Shown here one piece after another: positions 1,948-38,310 of a stretch of DNA of 38,310 nt (positions within the stretch are counted from its first letter, which is position 1; each line of letters opens with the position of its first letter). Source of the stretch: a phage; sequence record PX946180.1; one strand, 5' to 3'. The position numbers and the translations under genes were made by a program. The notes under the pieces are model-generated. The model was not told the DNA's origin. It saw only the letters and a program-made list of their open reading frames with translations, and did no database searches.

Positions 1948-2374
1948 TTACTACAAAGTGGACCAGGCGAGTCCATCCGGTCTGGTCTCCGTTAGGACTG
2001 GAAAGCCTGTGGGGACGTTAAGTCGGATGGGATATTGGATAGTACAGACACGAAGTCTAGGCAGTAAGCGGGCACATCGCGTGATATGGGAACTAACCAA
2101 TGGTCCTATACCACATGGTATGCAAATAGACCACATCGACAGGAATCCCAGCAATAATACCTTAAGTAACTTACGGCTCGTTACTGCCGCTGAGAACACT
2201 TGGAATACTGGTAGCCATTATGACTCTAAGACAGGAGTGAAGTGCGTTACCCGTCACCAGAATGGTTATAGGATTCAGGTTAAACGCGGTAATGTCTATA
2301 TGCGAACAACACGTCCTACTTTAGAGGAGGCTATCTCTGTCCGGGACCTAATGCTGGAGGGACTCTATGTCTAA
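1937..2374 (+). CDS. HNH homing endonuclease (HNH_3 motif plus AP2-like DNA-binding region)
   Basis: 145 aa; motif [37 protein letters not shown]; overlaps Rz stop and large terminase start; T7 has no gene here. Confidence 0.85.
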
Positions 2375-4133
2375 GAAAACACCTGTTGAAAGACAGGCAG
2401 AAATGACCCAAAGGATGAGGGACGATTTCGTGTTCTTCATCTTCGTTCTCTGGAAAGCTCTTAGCCTTCCGGTTCCAACCCGCTGCCAGATAGATATGTG
2501 TAAGAAGCTGGCTGCTGGGGATAATCGCCGCTTCATCCTTCAGGCGTTCCGTGGTATTGGCAAGTCGTTTCTGACCTGTGGTTTCGTGGTCTGGAAACTA
2601 TGGAACAACCCAGACTTGAAGTTCATGATTGTGTCGGCCTCAAAGGAACGAGCCGATGCGAACTCCATCTTCATCAAGAGAATCATCGACCTCATGCCTC
2701 AGCTTCAGGAACTCAAACCTAAGCAGGGACAGCGAGATGCGGTTATCAGCTTCGACGTTGGGCCAGCCAAGCCAGACCACTCACCTTCTGTTAAGTCCGT
2801 TGGTATCACTGGTCAGTTGACTGGTAGTCGTGCTGACATACTGATTGCAGATGACGTGGAGGTTCCTAATAACTCTGCGACTCAGGCTGCACGAGACCGT
2901 CTGTCAGAGCTTGTGAAAGAGTTCGACGCTATCCTGAAGCCGGGAGGTACAATCATCTATCTGGGTACGCCTCAGAACGAGATGACCCTGTATCGTGAGC
3001 TGGAGGGTCGCGGCTATACGACGACTATCTGGCCTGCACGTTACCCTCGAGATAAGAAGGACTGGCAGTCTTACGGCGACCGTCTGGCTCCTATGCTTCA
3101 GGCAGAGCTGGAAGAGGACCCTGAATCCTTCTACTGGCGTCCGACCGATGAGGTACGATTCGATGATACGGACCTGAAGGAACGTGAGCTGTCCTATGGT
3201 AAGGCTGGCTTCGCGCTACAGTTCATGCTTAACCCGAACCTGAGTGATGCTGAGAAGTACCCTCTGAAGCTCCGTGACCTTATCGTAGCCGACTTGGACC
3301 CAGCGTCCAGCCCAATGGTCTACCAATGGTTGCCAAACCCTCAGAACAAGCGTGAGGACGTTCCTAACGTTGGACTCATGGGTGACTCATACCACACGTA
3401 TCAGACTGTAGGTTCTGCCTTCAGTTCGTACACCCAGAAGATTCTGGTCATTGACCCTAGTGGTCGTGGTAAGGATGAAACTGGTTATGCGGTACTGTAT
3501 CAGCTAAACGGCTACATCTTCGCTATGGAAGTTGGTGGTATGCGTGGTGGTTATGAAGACTCTACGCTGGAAGCCTTGGCTAAGATTGGTCGTAAGTGGA
3601 AGGTCAACGAATACGTCATTGAGGGTAACTTCGGTGATGGTATGTACCTTGAGCTATTCAAGCCTGTAGCGGCACGTATCCATCCTGCTGCTGTAACTGA
3701 AGTGAAGAGTAAGGGTCAGAAAGAACTCCGCATCTGTGACGTTCTGGAGCCTATCATGGGGTCTCACCGACTTATCGTTAACGCTTCTGCTATCGTCCAA
3801 GACTACCAGACAGCCTCTGATAAGGACGGCGTTCGTAACCCTATCTACTCTCTCTTCTACCAGATGACACGTATCTCTCGTGAACGTGGAGCCTTGGCAC
3901 ATGATGACCGACTTGATGCTCTGGCTATAGGTGTACAGTTCTTCGTTGAGTCTATGGCTAAGGATGCCAACAAAGGCGAACGTGAAGTCACTGAGGAGTG
4001 GCTGGAGGAACAGATGGAGAACCCACGGAAAGGCTTCGAGTCCATCCACACTGAGTTCTGGGACAATGGTGTCCGGGTAACTCACGATACGGGCGATGAG
4101 CTTGGGCTAGGGTCATACGTTACGTTCCACTAG
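2367..4133 (+). CDS. terminase large subunit (T7 gp19-like)
   Basis: 588 aa, collinear with recalled T7 gp19 (586 aa); Walker A-like GIGKS and nuclease region present. Confidence 0.95.
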
Positions 4134-4227
4134 CTGAATGAATAACTATAGGTGAAAGCTGCATGAATACGCAGTTAGTAACCTATAGTTACTACCAGTC
4201 TAACCTACTGTTTTACAAGGAGTTTGG

Positions 4228-4250
4228 ACTTAACTATCACTATAGGGAAG
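4228..4250 (+). promoter_or_regulatory. phage RNAP promoter (phiOR-like), +1 G at 4245
   Basis: TTAACTATCACTATAGGGAAG matches the window consensus; sits between terminase and the genome-end region as T7 phiOR does. Confidence 0.7.
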
Positions 4251-4430
4251 ACCCCCGGTTACTTATAGTATTACTGTAGTGAATATACATATGCAGACTT
4301 TATGCAAGACCTTAGGAGGCAGACTCCGAGTTCTTACCTAAGGCTTGCACCGATGGAAGGAGGGTGATATTAATCATAATCCCTCCAATACAGATAGTCA
4401 CCGACCATAGATACAGGAGGTATGTAGCAT

Positions 4431-4589
4431 ATGGCAAAGACCAAAGCTGTACTCAAAGCTCTGGCGACCAATCGAGCTACATACAGGTTTCTTGCTGCTG
4501 TTCTACTTGCTTCTGGCGTTACTGCTGGAAGTCAGTGGGTCGGGTGGGTCGAGACTCTCGTATGTTCTCTGGTGTCTCAGTGTAATTAA
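4431..4589 (+). CDS. small hypothetical membrane protein (gene 19.5 position)
   Basis: 52-aa ORF with AGGAGG 10 nt upstream and a hydrophobic core; below the 60-aa tracker threshold; preferred over the overlapping tracker ORF 4364..4585. Confidence 0.4.
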   Translation: MAKTKAVLKALATNRATYRFLAAVLLASGVTAGSQWVGWVETLVCSLVSQCN

Positions 4590-4865
4590 TGCAATCATGG
4601 TAACGATTCATGAAAGGAGGTAATATGATTGGTTATGGCGAAGGATGAAGAGCTAAGGTCAGTACGTGGATAAAGACTCACTCTACTGACCTTAGCTACT
4701 GTAGTCAAGGACTTTAGGTAACACCCTTCAGGCTCTCACTTCTGGTCTACCTACTGATTGGTTCACTGGTCGTCATCCGATGGCATTAGACCTACGGTCC
4801 TTGACCTACAGTAGCTGGCTCCTAAGGAGGGACGATGAGTTTTGGACCAAAAGTTTGAGACCACA

Positions 4866-5090
4866 TCTCACAGTTCAAGAACCTCAAGTCTCCCCATAGG
4901 CCCTCTTTCAGTCCAGACCAAAGGCCCTACCCCTAGACCTTCGGTCTAAACTTCAGGTCATTGACTCAAGGTCTACCCTAAGTCATGACGATAGGTCAGG
5001 GCTATGGCTGGTGGTCAGGACGATAGGTAGGGACTATGGGTCTTCTTTGAGTCTCTATCTGTATCAGACCTTGAGTCACTACCTACAGTC
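4866..5090 (+). repeat. candidate terminal-repeat (DTR) region of the linear genome, collapsed to one copy in this assembly; right boundary approximate
   Basis: Starts with TCTCACAG as the T7 left end does, followed by T7-like elements CCCCATAGG, ACCTTCGGT, CCCTAAG and GTCTCTATCTGTATCAG; comparison is from memory of the T7 terminal repeat. Confidence 0.35.
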
Positions 5091-5165
5091 TAACTACCTA
5101 CAGTATAACTACCTACAGTCATCAACCATCGGTAATGCCGCTACCTACAGTCAGAGACCTACAGT
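5077..5165 (+). repeat. short tandem repeat array (A)CTACCTACAGT(C), five copies
   Basis: Direct copies at about 5077, 5091, 5105, 5140 and 5155; analogous to the CCTAAAG-type repeat arrays just inside T7 genome ends. Confidence 0.7.
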
Positions 5166-5269
5166 TAATAGACACAAAGGATATAGACTTAAGGTCTAAG
5201 ACATGTTAGTCAAAGACTATAGCCTCTTACACCATGGGGTCGACGATAGCTTAATCGATATTATTTCAA

Positions 5270-5450
5270 ATTACCTATTGACTATAGGTCTAGACTATGG
5301 CTTAATAGCTTCCGTCAACACGACACGGCAACAACCGGATAGTGAAGACGCCGGGTCATCCCGGTTAAGTAGACAGCCTGATAAGTCGTACGAACAACAG
5401 GCAGATGACAGAAAGTAGTTGACAAGCAGTGACGATACGATGTAAGCTGT
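5270..5450 (+). promoter_or_regulatory. early host-RNAP promoter region (candidate sigma70 promoters, A1-A3 equivalents)
   Basis: TTGACT at 5278-5283 with possible -10 CTTAAT after 17 nt; TTGACA at 5419-5424 followed by TACGATGTA.CCACAT resembling T7 A3; region 5350-5400 resembles recalled T7 sequence CCGGATAAGTAGACAGCCTGATAAGTCG; exact -10 elements are ambiguous. Confidence 0.45.
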
Positions 5451-5636
5451 ACCACATCGAAACAACGGTGAAGACCAACACTGAAACGGTCTACCTGAAG
5501 TCTTCTGACTGAAGGGAATGCTCTTTAACAATCTGGATAACTCTTAATGTGCGCCGATAGCGACTAACTACAGGGTCTTTGAGTCTACACCTGAAGGCCC
5601 TGACTGATAGTCACTAACAACTGAGAGGATATAACT

Positions 5637-6143
5637 ATGGAACGTAACGCTAACGCATACTATGACCTGCTGGCTGCAACCGTTAAAGCATTTAACGAAC
5701 GTATTCGGTCCGACGAAATAGCTGAAGGTGATGACTACCACGATGCGCTGCATGAAGTCGTAGACGGTCAGGTTCCGCTCTATTACCACGAGATTTTTAC
5801 GGTGATGGCTGCTGATGGCATAGACCACGAGTTCGAAGACTCTGGGCTGATGCCTGAGACCAAGGACGTAACGCGCATACTGCAAGCTCGCATCTATGAG
5901 GCACTGTATAACGACGTGTCTAATAGCTCGGATGTGGTCTGGTTTGAGGCTGAAGAGAGCGACGAAGGGGATAAGTATTGGGTAGTTGACGCTAAAACGG
6001 GACTATTCGTTGAGCAAGCTGTACCTCTTGAGGTCGCTATTGCATCTGCCAAAGACCTCTATGCGGTAGGTCATCACATGAAAGTCGAAGACATTAACGA
6101 TAACGTAGTGTTCGACCCTGCGGCTGAAGAGGACTGCGAGTGA
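5637..6143 (+). CDS. ocr: Ocr-like anti-restriction DNA mimic (gene 0.3) with extra ~65-aa C-terminal extension
   Basis: 168 aa; VPLYYHEIFTVMAADGIDHEFEDSGLMPETKDVTRILQARIYE closely matches recalled T7 Ocr core; first gene after the early promoter region. Confidence 0.85.
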   Translation: MERNANAYYDLLAATVKAFNERIRSDEIAEGDDYHDALHEVVDGQVPLYYHEIFTVMAADGIDHEFEDSGLMPETKDVTRILQARIYEALYNDVSNSSDVVWFEAEESDEGDKYWVVDAKTGLFVEQAVPLEVAIASAKDLYAVGHHMKVEDINDNVVFDPAAEEDCE

Positions 6144-7256: not shown

Positions 7257-9104
7257 ATGAGCGTCATCTCTATTGACAAACACGACTTCTCTGATGTGTC
7301 GAACGCCATTGAGCCGTTTAACCTGCTGGCTGACCACTACGGGCAAGACCTCGCAGTAAAGCAGCTTCAGCTTGAGCATGAGGCATACACTGAAGGCGAG
7401 CGACGTTTCATCAAGAACCTTGAGCGCCAGACTGAGCGCGGGGAACTGGCAGACAATCAGGTCGCCAAGCCTTTGATGCAGACTCTGGTCCCGACCATCG
7501 CTAAGGCTTTCCGTGAGTGGCATGAAGGCCCGGACGGTAAGTCCTCGACCTCTCGTCCAAGCGTAGCGTTCACCATGCTGAGCACTGACGAGAAGGCTGT
7601 CAAAGACCGCTCTCTGCTCATCTCTGCGGAGTCTGCTGCGGTCATCATACTGAAGGTCATTCTCAGCAAGCTGGTCAAGCCTGAAGGCATCCCGATAACT
7701 CCTATGGCGTCCGCGATAGGTCGAACACTGGAAGATGAAATCCGCTTTGGTCGCATCCGTGATCAGGAGAAGGAGCACTTCAAGAAGGCGATAGCTGAGA
7801 ACCTGAACAAGCGCGCAGGGGTATCCTACAAGAAAGCCTACATGCAAGCGGTTGAGACCTCCATGTTGGAGCAAGGCCAACTGGAAGATGCCTGGGGAAC
7901 TTGGAGTCCGACCGAGGCGGTCCATGTTGGCATCAAGATGCTTGAGATTGTCATCCAGTCTACTCAACTGGTAGAGCTTAAGCGTTATGGTGCTGGCAAT
8001 GCAGCGGCGGACGTTGAGATGGTCCACCTGTCAGACTTCTGGGTCAAGAAGATGGCTCAGCGTGGCTTCTCTCTTGCGGGAATCGCTCCAGTCTACCAGC
8101 CATGCGTAGTTCCGCCTAAGCCGTGGACCGGGGTGGTGGGTGGTGGGTACTGGGCTAAAGGCCGAAGACCACTACCACTGATTCGCTTAGGGTCTAAGTC
8201 TGCGGTGGCACGTTACGAAGATGTATACATGCCTGAAGTCTACGACGCTGTGAATATCATTCAGAATACACCTTGGAAAGTGAACAAGAAGGTTCTGAAC
8301 GTGGTGAACATGGTCGAGAAGCTGAACAACACGCCTATTGATGACATCCCTCAGATGGAACCGCTGAAGCCTGAGGACTATGCGGGTGAGACTGAAGAAG
8401 AACTTAAGGCATGGAAGAAAGCTGCTGCCGGTATCTATCGCCGCGAGAAGGCCCGACAGTCACGAAGATTGTCACTGAGCTTTATCGTTAACCAAGCGAA
8501 CAAGTTCTCTCAGTTCAAGGCTATCTGGTTCCCGTATAACATGGATTGGCGAGGTCGTGTCTACGCTGTCCCGATGTTCAACCCTCAGGGTAACGACATG
8601 CAAAAGGGACTCCTGACTCTGGCAGTCGGTAAGCCTATTGGTGCTGATGGTTTCAAATGGCTGAAGGTACGCAAGAAGGATACCACTCGTCTGAACCTGA
8701 TGTTCTTAGGGTCATTCAACCTTCAGCCTACAGTCAACAAAGGCGCGAAGAAAGAGCTTGACAAACACAAGCAGGAGTCAGGTATTAGCCCGAACTTCGT
8801 CCACTCACAAGATGGCAGTCACCTCCGCAAGACTGTAGTCCACACGCACCGCAAGTATGGCGTGATGTCGTTCGCAGTGATCCACGATAGCTTCGGGACC
8901 ATCCCGGCTGACGCTGAGTATCTGTTCCGTGGTGTCCGTGAGACGATGGTCGAGACCTACCGCGACAACGATGTGCTGCTTGACTTCTATGAGCAGTTTG
9001 AATACCAGCTTCATGAGAGCCAGCGCGACAAGCTGCCAGAGCTTCCGAAGAAAGGTGAACTGAATATCGAAGACATCCTGTCTTCAGACTTTGCATTCGC
9101 TTAA
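7257..9104 (+). CDS. T7-like single-subunit RNA polymerase with ~268-codon internal in-frame deletion (catalytic motifs A and B missing; probably non-functional)
   Basis: 615 aa versus 883 aa for T7 RNAP; N-terminal ~464 aa and C-terminal ~151 aa are collinear with T7 (promoter-binding domain, specificity loop, HKQESG..FVHSQDGSHLRK, IHDSFGT, terminal FAFA); junction GFKWLK/VRKKDTTRLNLMFLG at about 8664-8669; no DGSCSG or TLAYGS motif anywhere in the ORF. Confidence 0.85.
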   Translation: MSVISIDKHDFSDVSNAIEPFNLLADHYGQDLAVKQLQLEHEAYTEGERRFIKNLERQTERGELADNQVAKPLMQTLVPTIAKAFREWHEGPDGKSSTSRPSVAFTMLSTDEKAVKDRSLLISAESAAVIILKVILSKLVKPEGIPITPMASAIGRTLEDEIRFGRIRDQEKEHFKKAIAENLNKRAGVSYKKAYMQAVETSMLEQGQLEDAWGTWSPTEAVHVGIKMLEIVIQSTQLVELKRYGAGNAAADVEMVHLSDFWVKKMAQRGFSLAGIAPVYQPCVVPPKPWTGVVGGGYWAKGRRPLPLIRLGSKSAVARYEDVYMPEVYDAVNIIQNTPWKVNKKVLNVVNMVEKLNNTPIDDIPQMEPLKPEDYAGETEEELKAWKKAAAGIYRREKARQSRRLSLSFIVNQANKFSQFKAIWFPYNMDWRGRVYAVPMFNPQGNDMQKGLLTLAVGKPIGADGFKWLKVRKKDTTRLNLMFLGSFNLQPTVNKGAKKELDKHKQESGISPNFVHSQDGSHLRKTVVHTHRKYGVMSFAVIHDSFGTIPADAEYLFRGVRETMVETYRDNDVLLDFYEQFEYQLHESQRDKLPELPKKGELNIEDILSSDFAFA

Positions 9105-9395: not shown

Positions 9396-9866
9396 ATGTT
9401 CGGTAAGTCAAAACTTGAAGCACAAATCGTAGAGTTGAGCATGAAGGTGGCATACTTGGAGCGAGCCGTAAAGGTCCGGGATAAGGACAACGAGAGACTG
9501 AAGGCTAAACTTGCTGAATCAGAGCGTAAGCGCCTAACGCCACCAGCGGCTGTAACTGTCAAGCGTATGGTCGGCATCAAGTTCAAGGAACTGTTCGACG
9601 GTAAGTATCAGCCCACTGAGTTCAAGATAGGTCTTGGAAAGTGTGGAAAGGTGGTTCACTACTTCGAGGTGACTAAGCGTGACTACCTGACGATTACCAT
9701 CCACCAGTACCACACAGACGGGTCATCTAAGGACTTTGAGTATCGACTTAGCGACATCGACGGTCGTATACAGTACGACTACGAGCCGATGCAGGTCTAC
9801 GGTGAGGAGGCAGAGCAGGAACGTATAGTCCAAGCCTTCCGCAACAGACCACGATTCGTACCCTAA
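9396..9866 (+). CDS. hypothetical early protein (156 aa), N-terminal coiled-coil
   Basis: Tracker ORF; GAGG RBS; charged heptad-like N-terminus (KLEAQIVELSMKVAYLERAVKVRDKDNERLKAKLAESERK); no recognised homolog. Confidence 0.6.
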   Translation: MFGKSKLEAQIVELSMKVAYLERAVKVRDKDNERLKAKLAESERKRLTPPAAVTVKRMVGIKFKELFDGKYQPTEFKIGLGKCGKVVHYFEVTKRDYLTITIHQYHTDGSSKDFEYRLSDIDGRIQYDYEPMQVYGEEAEQERIVQAFRNRPRFVP

Positions 9867-19356: not shown

Positions 19357-19520
19357 TGGCTAAAACTTATAGTGAGCAGGAGGTCAAAGACTTGATGCGG
19401 TCAGCTTGGTGGTGTGGACACGAGGAGTCTCGTTATAGTCCAAACCTCAGTGGTTCATGCAGTCGAGACATCCGTGAAATTCTTAAAGACCATAACGAAG
19501 AAGACGAAGGAGAAATCTAA
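19356..19520 (+). CDS. small hypothetical protein (54 aa)
   Basis: ATG overlaps DNAP stop (TAATG); trimmed from tracker ORF 19338..19520. Confidence 0.4.
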   Translation: MAKTYSEQEVKDLMRSAWWCGHEESRYSPNLSGSCSRDIREILKDHNEEDEGEI

Positions 19521-19998: not shown

Positions 19999-20231
19999 GT
20001 GAACTGGATTTACTGAAGAAGTTTGACGAGCTTATGTCACTCCTTAATGGTGAAGAGAACTCAATGGCTGAAGAGTTCCGCGAGGCTTTAGCAGCTAAGT
20101 TAGACCGTGCCGCTGATGATCGACTCTGGCGGGAGTGCTTGGAGTCTGGCGGGGTTGACAACTGGTCTTGGTTCTCTGAGTCACTGTCTGAAGGTGGATA
20201 CTACAAGGAGGACGACGATGACTTCGAATAA
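19995..20231 (+). CDS. acidic hypothetical protein (78 aa) at the gene 5.9 position
   Basis: ATG overlaps gp5.7 stop; strongly acidic, ends EDDDDFE; no sequence match to recalled T7 gp5.9. Confidence 0.5.
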   Translation: MSELDLLKKFDELMSLLNGEENSMAEEFREALAAKLDRAADDRLWRECLESGGVDNWSWFSESLSEGGYYKEDDDDFE

Positions 20232-25139: not shown

Positions 25140-25839
25140 ATGGCAAACGTTCCGGGTCAGAAAATTGGTACAGACCAAGGTAAAGGCAAATCCAGTTCCG
25201 ACGCTAATGGCTCTCCTGTGTAACCTCCCGGCTGCATCCAACGAGAACATTGCCGGTCTGGGCACTGCGTCAGTACTTGAAGTTGGTACTAAAGCCGACC
25301 TGAACACTCCGGCTAAGCTGGGTGAAGCAATCATCGGTCAACTGACCATTGCTCGTGCGAAGCTGACCTCCAACTACGTTCCTGCTGGCGACCGTTACTT
25401 CTACACCACGCCGGACAACTACTCTGCAATCCTCGCGGCTCTGATGCCGAACGCTGCCAACTATGCTGCGCTGATTGACCCAGAGACTGGTAACATCCGT
25501 AACGTGATGGGCTTCGTTGTTGTTGAAGTCCCGCATCTGGTGCAGGGTGGTGCTGGTGAGACCCGTGGTGACGATGGCATCACTATCGCTTCCGGCCAGA
25601 AACACGCATTCCCGGCGACTGCTGCTGACGATGTTAAAGTTGCTATGGACAACGTTGTGGGTCTGTTCTCTCACCGTTCTGCTGTGGGTACTGTGAAGCT
25701 GCGTGACTTGGCGCTGGAACGTGACCGTGACGTCGATGCTCAGGGCGACCTGATTGTTGGTAAGTACGCTATGGGTCACGGCGGCCTGCGTCCAGAAGCG
25801 GCAGGCGCACTGGTTTTCACAGCGGCGCTGGGGGGTTAA
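25140..25839 (+). pseudogene. major capsid protein gene (gene 10A), disrupted: first 16 codons and last ~205 codons present, ~120 central codons missing, junction out of frame
   Basis: ATG 25140 with RBS encodes MANVPGQKIGTDQGKG (matches the recalled T7 gp10 N-terminus) then stops at 25221-25223 after 27 codons; the +1 frame from about 25213 encodes LCNLPAASNENIAGLGTAS... to the stop at 25839, collinear with T7 gp10A residues ~145-345; only ~810 nt separate the phi10 start site from the capsid stop. Confidence 0.8.
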
Positions 25840-36691: not shown

Positions 36692-38310
36692 ATGTCCACG
36701 ATTACACAATTCCCTTCAGGAAACACTCAGTACAGGATTGAGTTCGACTACCTAGCCAGAACGTTTATTGTTGTTACGCTGGTGAATAGCTCTAACCCTA
36801 CCCTGAACCGTGTACTGGAAGTTGGTCGAGATTACCGATTCCTTAATCCAACGATGCTTGAGATGTTGGTTGACCAATCAGGTTTCGACATCGTTCGTAT
36901 TCACCGTCAGACTGGAACTGACTTAGTGGTAGACTTCAGGAATGGCTCAGTGTTGACAGCTAGTGACCTGACCAATGCAGAGCTTCAGGCTATCCATATT
37001 GCAGAAGAAGGTCGAGACCAAACTGTTGACTTAGCGAAGGAATATGCCGATGCTGCTGGTAACTCTGCTGGCAACGCTAAGGACAGCGAGGACGAAGCAC
37101 GCCGAATCGCTGAGAGTATCAAGGCAGCTGGTCTAACTGGCTATATTACCCGTAGATCCTTCGAGAAAGGCTTCAACGTTACAACATGGAACGAGGTCCT
37201 GCTATGGGAGGATGATGGTGAATATTACCGCTGGGATGGTACGCTCCCAAAGAACGTTCCTGCTGGCTCAACTCCTGAATCATCTGGTGGAATTGGATTA
37301 GGAGCGTGGGTTAGTGTTGGTGATGCATCGCTGAGATCTCAGATAGCCTCCGTAACCGGATTTAATCTTGTAGGTCAGGTGCCAGATGTAACTACATTAC
37401 GCAATACAGAACCGACAACAGACAGCAAGAGAATCCTCCTTCGCGAATACACAGCAGGCACAGGATATGGTGGCGGTCAGTTACGAGCAATCCTTGACGG
37501 AAGCTCTTACGTTGACAACGGCGTTACTGTGTTTAAAACAACTGGTGGTGCTGCATGGGTCCGCGTTAACGCAGATATCATTACATCCTTCATGGCGGGT
37601 GCTGTGCCTGATGCAGGTACTACTGATAACACGGCTGCTATTAATCGCTTCCTCGCCGCAGGTAAGAAATTGGTTATGAGGGATGGTATCTTTGGTCATT
37701 CTGGTCAAATTTCTTTGCAAACAGGTATATCTCTTGATTTATCTGGAGCGACAATAAAACCATCATCGACTCTACTCACCGCTGCTTGGGTGGGGAGCAA
37801 CTTGTTTGATGTAAAAATAACCGGCGGCGTGTTTGAAGGAACTGGCTTGGACAATACAGCTGGCAACGGCCATCTTTTGCTGCTTTCTAATTGCCAAGGG
37901 TGCTACGTAGATGGCACTACATTTACGAAATCTCCGCAGGATGGATTGCGATTTGTATCTTGTACACGATGTATTGCGAGTAACGCTATTTCGTACAACA
38001 ACCTTTCTGTAGGTATTCAAGACCGCGATGGGGATTACAACACTATCATTGGGTGTAAATGTAACGGTAATGGTAATACAGGAACGGTTGCTGGAGTTGG
38101 TGGTCGAGGTATTCTCACATGGCGTAGCTTTGGCACAAAAGTTATCGCCTGTGACGCGTTCAATAACACAGAGTATGGCATTCGGGCATATTCGCAAGCA
38201 GGAGATTCCAGAGGTTCGACTCAAATCCTGATTAGTGATTGCCACACCGGCGATAACACTAAGATTGATATTTACGTGTACAACGAAATCGGAAGCCTGT
38301 CTGAGATACT
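36692..38310 (+). CDS. tail fiber/tailspike, 5' part (T7 gp17-like N-terminal adaptor plus start of beta-helix domain); continues at 1..857
   Basis: ATG 36692 with AAGGAGG RBS; N-terminal ~150 aa resemble the recalled T7 gp17 tail-attachment domain (FDYLAR.F.VVTL, DYRF, LV.DF..GS.L.A.DL, HIAEE.RD); frame stays open to the window end and continues at position 1; total about 782 aa. Confidence 0.9.
   Translation, partial: MSTITQFPSGNTQYRIEFDYLARTFIVVTLVNSSNPTLNRVLEVGRDYRFLNPTMLEMLVDQSGFDIVRIHRQTGTDLVVDFRNGSVLTASDLTNAELQAIHIAEEGRDQTVDLAKEYADAAGNSAGNAKDSEDEARRIAESIKAAGLTGYITRRSFEKGFNVTTWNEVLLWEDDGEYYRWDGTLPKNVPAGSTPESSGGIGLGAWVSVGDASLRSQIASVTGFNLVGQVPDVTTLRNTEPTTDSKRILLREYTAGTGYGGGQLRAILDGSSYVDNGVTVFKTTGGAAWVRVNADIITSFMAGAVPDAGTTDNTAAINRFLAAGKKLVMRDGIFGHSGQISLQTGISLDLSGATIKPSSTLLTAAWVGSNLFDVKITGGVFEGTGLDNTAGNGHLLLLSNCQGCYVDGTTFTKSPQDGLRFVSCTRCIASNAISYNNLSVGIQDRDGDYNTIIGCKCNGNGNTGTVAGVGGRGILTWRSFGTKVIACDAFNNTEYGIRAYSQAGDSRGSTQILISDCHTGDNTKIDIYVYNEIGSLSEI
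38184..38310 (+). repeat. assembly overlap: exact copy of positions 1-127 (circular contig artifact)
   Basis: Direct comparison: 38184-38310 is identical to 1-127 and lies inside the tail fiber coding sequence. Confidence 0.9.

Follow-up and report, generated by a model that had tools for sequence, protein, structure and literature searches.

A predicted T7-type concatemer junction between genes 19.5 and 0.3 of a circularised Kayfunavirus assembly

The 1-kb block at positions 4590-5636 of the window (the whole 38,310-nt stretch of phage DNA analysed, record PX946180.1) is very probably a T7-type concatemer junction, with the physical genome ends predicted at 4866 and 5056 and the terminal repeat present once in a circularised contig. 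By homology, the block consists of the right unique end (4590-4865), the repeat (4866-5056) and the left-end control region (5057-5636). A length of about 38,374 bp (38,183 bp of unique sequence plus 191 bp) is expected for the virion DNA, which would start at 4866 and end with a second copy of 4866-5056. A first-pass annotation of this DNA had placed the ends inside the block, with a start near 4866 and a direct repeat of roughly 160-220 bp collapsed to one copy, and comparison with related phages bore out all three proposals.

Form of the assembly and location of the block

Sequence comparison identifies the window as a K1F-like relative of T7 from the genus Kayfunavirus (subfamily Studiervirinae), which shares ~93% identity with Kayfunavirus genomes over ~91% of a 24-kb stretch. 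Its gene order is collinear with that of ASO2B and follows a T7-like map. Self-comparison of the window revealed an exact 127-nt overlap between its two ends, and the unique length without this overlap is 38,183 bp. Removing the overlap and closing the molecule gives a single stop-free frame of 799 codons, which extends from 36641 through the window ends to 857 and carries a T7 gp17-type N-terminus. Thus, the overlap and the unbroken gene 17 frame identify the sequence as a circularised, short-read-style assembly, which was opened arbitrarily inside gene 17. Short-read assemblers commonly drop one copy of a T7-like terminal repeat and open the contig mid-genome (PMC10438801). The features that define the position of the block are as follows.

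1-127, no strand: assembly overlap, identical to 38184-38310; contig opened inside gene 17
2367-4133, plus strand: large terminase, gene 19 (Pfam PF22530, T7 terminase RNaseH-like domain, E 6e-38)
4228-4250, plus strand: phiOR, phage-polymerase promoter reading toward the junction (23-mer identical to the annotated EcoDS1 phiOR)
4431-4589, plus strand: gene 19.5, last gene of the linear genome (from the ORF list; homologous to the annotated gp19.5 of PE3-1 and EcoDS1)
5637-6143, plus strand: gene 0.3, ocr-like anti-restriction protein, first gene into the cell (Pfam PF08684, ocr, E 1e-29)

The block had been described as non-coding, and this description holds: gene 19.5 ends at 4589, the ocr-like gene 0.3 begins at 5637, and the sequence between them contains nothing but ORFs that are not conserved and an ORF remnant of 7 codons. 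In K1F, gene 19.5 is followed by a 23-codon ORF, of which 7 codons are left in the window. The exact gp19.5 protein is also carried by 19 public contigs. The closest known junctions are those of the Kayfunavirus genomes of Morganella phage MopsHU1 (LC799501), Citrobacter phage SH4 (KU687350), EcoDS1 (NC_011042) and K1F (NC_007456). The window encodes both the small (gp18) and the large (gp19) T7-type terminase subunits, which match PF11123 and PF22530, respectively. Over the parts compared, the large terminase shares 97.9% identity with that of MopsHU1 and 92.3% with that of SH4, and the same cutting specificity is therefore expected.

Predicted genome ends and terminal repeat

The predicted ends are defined by one feature.

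4866-5056, no strand: predicted 191-bp direct terminal repeat in single copy; virion DNA would begin with base 4866 and finish with base 5056 (homology to annotated repeats)

Virtual concatemer junctions of EcoDS1 and K1F, each composed of the right end without its repeat and the left end, were aligned to the window. The 68 nt at 4866-4933, beginning with TCTCACAGTTCAAG, are identical to the start of the EcoDS1 record and differ by one base from K1F, and window positions 4831-4865 are identical to the EcoDS1 and K1F sequence immediately left of their right-hand repeat. A search with 4866-5056 (E-values 3e-81 for MopsHU1, 8e-63 for SH4 and 1e-41 for EcoDS1) showed that 12 of 60 evenly sampled relatives have records beginning at the base homologous to 4866, namely MopsHU1, SH4, EcoDS1, YZ1, 216Ecol046PP, SH3, K1F, Penshu1, HC12, T7M, T3 and Sekstaphage-1. 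For SH3, SH4 and SH5, the ends come from run-off Sanger sequencing of phage DNA (PMC4925675), and for MopsHU1 and Penshu1, PhageTerm called the repeats; therefore, the record starts of these relatives reflect more than convention. The octamer TCTCACAG, with which the T7 repeat begins and which the first-pass annotation had pointed out, is present at 4866-4873, its sole plus-strand occurrence. Since an 8-mer alone is near chance expectation (~1 in 38 kb, both strands), its significance rests on the extended 68-nt homology.

The right end of the repeat is located by five annotated repeats, which share one aligned boundary with GAGTC(T/C)CT on the repeat side and ATCTGTAT on the other. The same boundary, GAGTCTCT followed directly by ATCTGTAT, is found in the window and in its Kayfunavirus relatives. 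The homology-based repeat length of 191 bp falls within the range proposed before and compares with 195 bp in MopsHU1, 191 bp in SH4, 179 bp in Penshu1, 178 bp in EcoDS1 and 178 bp in K1F (the last by self-comparison). The predicted right boundary may be off by 1-2 nt, because the SH4 repeat is 190 bp in the paper and 191 bp in the record, and that of K1F 179 bp in the literature and 178 bp in the record. The window repeat is 95.4% identical to the MopsHU1 repeat and 89.1% identical to that of SH4.

A self-search of the window found no second copy of the repeat, in agreement with the single copy claimed earlier and with the circularised form of the contig. Instead of an assembler collapse, the single copy could represent a natural junction of intracellular concatemeric DNA from a metagenome or from infected cells, which we regard as rather unlikely and which would still produce progeny ending at 4866 and 5056. 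T7-type concatemers do carry one repeat per junction (PMC10438801), and each of ten public metagenome contigs with an identical gp19.5 continues across the junction, none of them ending at 4866 or 5056. On the other hand, the 127-nt overlap shows only that the assembly graph was closed, and virion DNA with terminal repeats produces this too. Collapse and a natural junction predict the same sequence and are therefore inseparable by sequence, and both place the ends of the packaged genome at the same two positions.

The repeat is longer here than in K1F and EcoDS1 (191 versus 178 bp) because of a 57-nt middle segment (4934-4990), which is common only to the window, SH4 and MopsHU1 and is replaced in K1F, EcoDS1 and Penshu1. 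With repeat lengths of 178 to 195 bp in the genus, the ends might lie within the block at boundaries other than the homology-based ones, for example as a result of this lineage-specific segment. Such a shift is very improbable, since both boundaries lie in conserved sequence outside the variable middle, and SH4 (191 bp, determined) and MopsHU1 (195 bp, PhageTerm) have the same middle segment together with the same boundaries. It is scarcely credible that the phage has no fixed ends, with a circular or headful-packaged, permuted genome and a block that is only an early regulatory region. The contig does close on itself, but its terminase is of the T7 type and shares 98% identity with the enzyme of a phage whose short terminal repeats were defined by PhageTerm, the junction shows homology over its full length to ends mapped by experiment, and a headful-packaging annotation was not seen in any Studiervirinae record among the hits.

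With ends at 4866 and 5056, the predicted junction resembles those of the four Kayfunavirus comparators in its first base and first 68 nt (the same or nearly so), in the sequence left of the cut, in its position between genes 19.5 and 0.3, and in the presence of an inverted repeat, ACCTACAGT arrays, an A1-like promoter and an R0.3-like hairpin; it has a different number of ACCTACAGT units. The corresponding region of T7 (NC_001604) contains a 160-bp repeat, CCTAAAG arrays, phiOL, the promoters A1, A2 and A3, the RNase III site R0.3 and gene 0.3. The window shares with T7 the start TCTCACAGT, the TGAG...CTCA inversion around the right cut, a repeat that ends just before ATCTGT, and short repeats on both flanks. 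In contrast to the 160-bp repeat of T7, the window repeat has 191 bp, and the two are alignable only over ~90 nt at 67% identity.

Probable control elements around the predicted cuts

Five elements lie close to the two predicted cuts.

4651-4697, no strand: perfect inverted repeat, 14-bp arms around a loop of 19 nt, AGCTAAGGTCAGTA...TACTGACCTTAGCT, kept in relatives
4790-4812, plus strand: two ACCTAC(G/A)GT units left of the repeat, conserved in relatives; counterpart of the T7 right-hand array
4833-4865, plus strand: 33-nt block abutting the right-end cut, candidate terminase recognition sequence, near-invariant in relatives
5055-5064, plus strand: concatemer-junction motif CTATCTGTAT; the homologous CTATCTGT is annotated 'concatemeric junction' in EcoDS1 and PE3-1
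5079-5165, plus strand: five (C/G)(T/A)ACCTACAGT units and one degenerate unit; counterpart of the T7 left-hand CCTAAAG array

In a conservation profile of ten relatives, the strongest island (4830-4929) surrounds the left-hand cut. The 33-nt block within it is identical in nine of the ten aligned relatives and has one mismatch in the tenth. It can be partly aligned with T7, and TGAGA/TCTCA is inverted around the cut (4856-4870). This conservation suggests that 4833-4865 is likely to be the terminase recognition sequence. Further upstream, the arms CTAAGGTCAGT and ACTGACCTTAG of the inverted repeat are kept in all four relatives examined (EcoDS1, K1F, SH4 and MopsHU1), whose right ends are annotated or self-evident. 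The centre of the inverted repeat lies 159-186 nt left of the repeat start in these relatives and 192 nt left of it in the window.

At the right-hand cut, the heptamer ATCTGTA (5057-5063) agrees at six of seven positions with ATCTGTT, the class II pause/termination signal of T7. All 11 aligned sequences retain ATCTGTA, and the plus strand of the window contains it once. The T7 signal is found at the T7 concatemer junction, and T7 polymerase reportedly tolerates no base change in it (bioRxiv 10.1101/2021.01.11.426313).

The short-repeat array right of the repeat had been reported as five copies. Four exact copies of CTACCTACAGT are indeed present (at 5079, 5094, 5109 and 5141), but the fifth, AGACCTACAGT at 5155-5165, matches the unit at only 9 of 11 positions. 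The core 9-mer ACCTACAGT occurs ten times in the window versus 0.46 expected, a number reached in none of 100 shuffles, and six of these copies fall within 4804-5165. All three plus-strand occurrences of GACGATAG in the window are located in the 4590-5636 block. The number of units in the 5079-5165 array varies among relatives, and T7 has CCTAAAG as its unit where the window has ACCTACAGT.

The remainder of the left-end control region carries two predicted host promoters and a hairpin.

5278-5314, plus strand: A1-like host promoter, TTGACT, 17 nt, CTTAAT, start at ~5314 (aligns with EcoDS1 469-505, annotated as 'host RNAP promoter', and with T7 A1)
5419-5456, plus strand: second host promoter, TTGACA, 18 nt, TAAGCT (5443-5448), GTACCAC, start at A5456 (corresponds to EcoDS1 609-647)
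5558-5616, plus strand: predicted hairpin resembling the RNase III site R0.3 of T7, shortly before gene 0.3 (homology and predicted fold)

Both -35 boxes, TTGACT at 5278 and TTGACA at 5419, are located where the first-pass annotation had put them. The A1-like promoter is kept in relatives and has the geometry of T7 A1, with 7 nt from CTTAAT to the predicted start. The second promoter aligns upstream with T7 A2 and downstream with T7 A3, including the A3 start context GTACCAC-A, and looks like an A2/A3 fusion, a single hybrid corresponding to two T7 promoters. It had been read as an A3-like promoter with a shortened spacer. The 11-nt distance between TTGACA and TACGAT (5436-5441) is correct, but all nine aligned relatives having this promoter keep the register TTGACA-18-TAnnnT, and their -10 hexamer is TAAGCT, TAGCAT, TAGTAT or TAATAT; therefore, the predicted -10 of the window is TAAGCT with an 18-nt spacer, and the predicted start is A5456. 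TACGAT falls inside this spacer and was rejected. An alternative -10 had been allowed for from the outset, and TAAGCT takes that place, 7 nt before the T7-A3-like GTACCAC-A start; GTACCAC-A directly follows the -10 in seven of the nine relatives.

The proposed T7-like architecture of the left end is only partly retained, with short-repeat arrays and a predicted R0.3-like hairpin, but there are two host promoters before gene 0.3 versus three in T7, and phiOL is missing. EcoDS1 has a third host promoter within a ~150-bp insertion, which is absent from the window and from K1F. No match to the 23-nt phage promoter within eight mismatches was found in 4866-5636, whereas ten plus-strand sites elsewhere in the window lie within six mismatches of it. 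A phiOL-like candidate overlapping the -35 region of the A1-like promoter (TTGACTATAGG) was rejected, as it requires an indel relative to the phage promoter consensus. Another TTGACT, at 4961 inside the repeat, matches the T7 A1 -35/spacer at 18 of 21 bases and is probably not a functional promoter, the hexamer 17 nt downstream being CATGAC. A consensus promoter and terminator scan returned three minus-strand promoter-like hits versus 2.6 expected, that is, chance level, and zero terminators; it missed both homologous host promoters because their -10 hexamers (CTTAAT and TAAGCT) are below its threshold.

The T7 sequence noticed earlier at about 5521, near the R0.3 site, is the 17-mer GCTCTTTAACAATCTGG at 5520-5536, which precedes the hairpin and is identical in T7 at 813-829. 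The predicted fold of the hairpin consists of a stem, an internal loop and a second stem, the topology of the T7 R0.3 region, and like its T7 counterpart it lies before the ocr gene. The lower stem has A-U and C-G where T7 has G-U and A-U pairs, with pairing kept, and the indels of relatives (an insertion in SH4 and a deletion in Penshu1) affect the apex only. The fold z-score is modest (-1.8), and no Rfam match was obtained in 4200-5800 at E-values up to 1; Rfam has no family for this hairpin. On the basis of homology and predicted structure, we consider 5558-5616 a putative R0.3-like RNase III processing hairpin.

Proposed packaging route and deletions in genes 1 and 10

The homology that places the ends and elements can be combined with the T7 paradigm, from which the following steps are inferred. 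Replication would generate head-to-tail concatemers with one repeat per junction. The phage RNA polymerase, transcribing from phiOR (4228), would pause at ATCTGTA (5057), and the terminase (gp18/gp19) would cut between 4865 and 4866 and between 5056 and 5057. Duplication of the repeat would give each packaged genome a copy at both ends. On infection, the 4866 end would enter the cell first, and host RNA polymerase would start at ~5314 and 5456, 449 and 591 nt from that end. The R0.3-like hairpin would be where RNase III processes the transcript, and the first protein made would be the ocr-like one. The single-base difference between ATCTGTA and the T7 class II signal ATCTGTT counts against the junction-pause step.

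Comparison with PE3-1 and ASO2B also revealed two deletions elsewhere in the window. Gene 1 (RNA polymerase, 7257-9104, 615 aa) lacks 278 codons in frame (834 nt, aa 472-749), and the deleted part contains PIAFDGSCSGIQHF and TKRSVMTLAYGS, which correspond to catalytic motifs A and B of T7 RNA polymerase. In the major capsid gene, 350 nt are missing between 25205 and 25206, and the frame is shifted after codon 22. Each of 20 other core genes checked forms a single frame, and 19 of them align over essentially their full length; gene 17 diverges beyond its N-terminal 223 aa. The RNA polymerase deletion junction occurs in no phage record, the best eight records among the matches listed for the capsid junction all have the 350 nt, and IMG/VR scans gave no match to either junction. 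Look-ups of the exact protein sequences of the truncated RNA polymerase, Ocr and the large terminase likewise found no record.

Since its own RNA polymerase gene is without the catalytic core, this genome alone could not carry out the transcription-coupled steps. One doubtful explanation is a defective 'cheater' genome, which would be replicated and packaged only with a co-infecting helper while keeping its cis elements (phiOR, the cut-site block, the terminal repeat, the junction motif and the early promoters). An assembly or editing artefact fits the deletions equally well. In either case, the deletions leave the predicted end positions unchanged.

These results are chiefly of practical use. 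For the record itself, the correct re-opening would place the first base at 4866, repeat 4866-5056 at the far end and delete the 127-nt overlap, giving ~38,374 bp, and the promoter annotation is corrected at the -10 of the second host promoter. T7-type ends of this kind are already known and nothing in them should surprise a specialist; the junction extends a well-described class by one member and poses no new question about it. Within the window, only the deletions in genes 1 and 10 might be of interest to a specialist. If the cheater explanation were true, the window would represent a natural satellite-like derivative of a T7-type phage, in which selection acts on the junction block.

Sequence around the predicted left genome end

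Four features lie between gene 19.5, the last gene of the linear genome, and the right part of the predicted 191-bp terminal repeat (4866-5056), the left boundary of which (4865/4866) is taken as the cut:

4614-4621, strong Shine-Dalgarno sequence (AAGGAGGT)
4625-4648, 7-codon ORF following this Shine-Dalgarno sequence
4651-4697, inverted repeat (perfect 14 bp, 19-nt loop)
4934-4990, 57-nt middle segment of the terminal repeat

The 7-codon ORF appears to be what is left of a small gene downstream of gene 19.5. At the same site K1F has a 23-codon ORF, whereas EcoDS1 has neither of the two. The arms of the inverted repeat are kept in EcoDS1, K1F, SH4, and MopsHU1, where its centre lies 159-186 nt to the left of the cut, compared to 192 nt in the window. 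No T-run was found downstream of the window copy. This inverted repeat may be related to the hairpin intermediate that has been proposed to take part in duplicating the T7 repeat.

The middle segment of the terminal repeat is common to the window, SH4, and MopsHU1, whereas K1F, EcoDS1, and Penshu1 contain other sequence in its place, indicating that the terminal repeat is mosaic. Within this segment, ATTGACTCAAGGTCTACCCTA resembles the -35/spacer region of the T7 A1 promoter (18 of 21 bases match), and no credible -10 element was found for it.

Tail-fibre gene, other ORFs, and insertions

The window ends, both of which lie inside the tail-fibre gene 17, carry an exact duplication, which resembles the k-mer overlap that an assembler leaves on a circular path and should be trimmed ahead of annotation. 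This duplication and the other segments are as follows:

1-127 and 38184-38310, identical 127-nt window ends
1937-2374, 145-codon ORF directly upstream of the large terminase gene
9396-9866, insertion relative to phage ASO2B, with a 156-codon ORF downstream of gene 1.1
19362-19517 and 20003-20230, two short insertions relative to ASO2B close to genes 5.5-6

The gene 17 product diverges from that of ASO2B past the N-terminal 223 amino acids, and its C-terminal part (encoded from approximately 37360 to 857, through the window ends) bears no relation to the K1F-type endosialidase, suggesting a different host receptor. In related metagenome contigs, an ORF equal in length and position to the 145-codon ORF has been called an HNH_3 endonuclease (PF13392), whereas other relatives have a 53-56-codon ORF instead. 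Based on the call for this counterpart and on the shorter ORF in the other relatives, the 145-codon ORF is probably a mobile homing endonuclease.

Deletions in the RNA polymerase and major capsid genes

Two genes of the window are shortened by internal deletions:

7257-9104, phage RNA polymerase gene, 615 codons only (deletion junction at 8668-8670)
25140-25827, major capsid gene, lacking 350 nt corresponding to aa 23-139 (deletion junction at 25205/25206)

Compared to PE3-1 gp1 (893 aa), the RNA polymerase gene lacks 278 codons (aa 472-749) in frame, including both PIAFDGSCSGIQHF and TKRSVMTLAYGS, which would correspond to the T7 RNA polymerase catalytic motifs A and B. Its junction was found in none of the 197 matching phage records and was not found in IMG/VR, and an exact-protein look-up returned no record of the 615-codon product. 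The 350-nt loss in the major capsid gene shifts the frame, leading to a stop a few codons past the junction. This junction was likewise not found in IMG/VR, and the missing 350 nt are present in all eight best-matching records among the matches listed.

The comparison with ASO2B covered 20 further core genes, each of which is in a single frame, with 19 of them aligned over essentially their full length and gene 17 being the exception. Both deletions hit essential trans-acting genes, with all cis elements (phiOR, cut-site block, terminal repeat, junction motif, and early promoters) intact. The two deletions could be an assembly or editing artefact, or else the genome represented by the window could be defective or helper-dependent.
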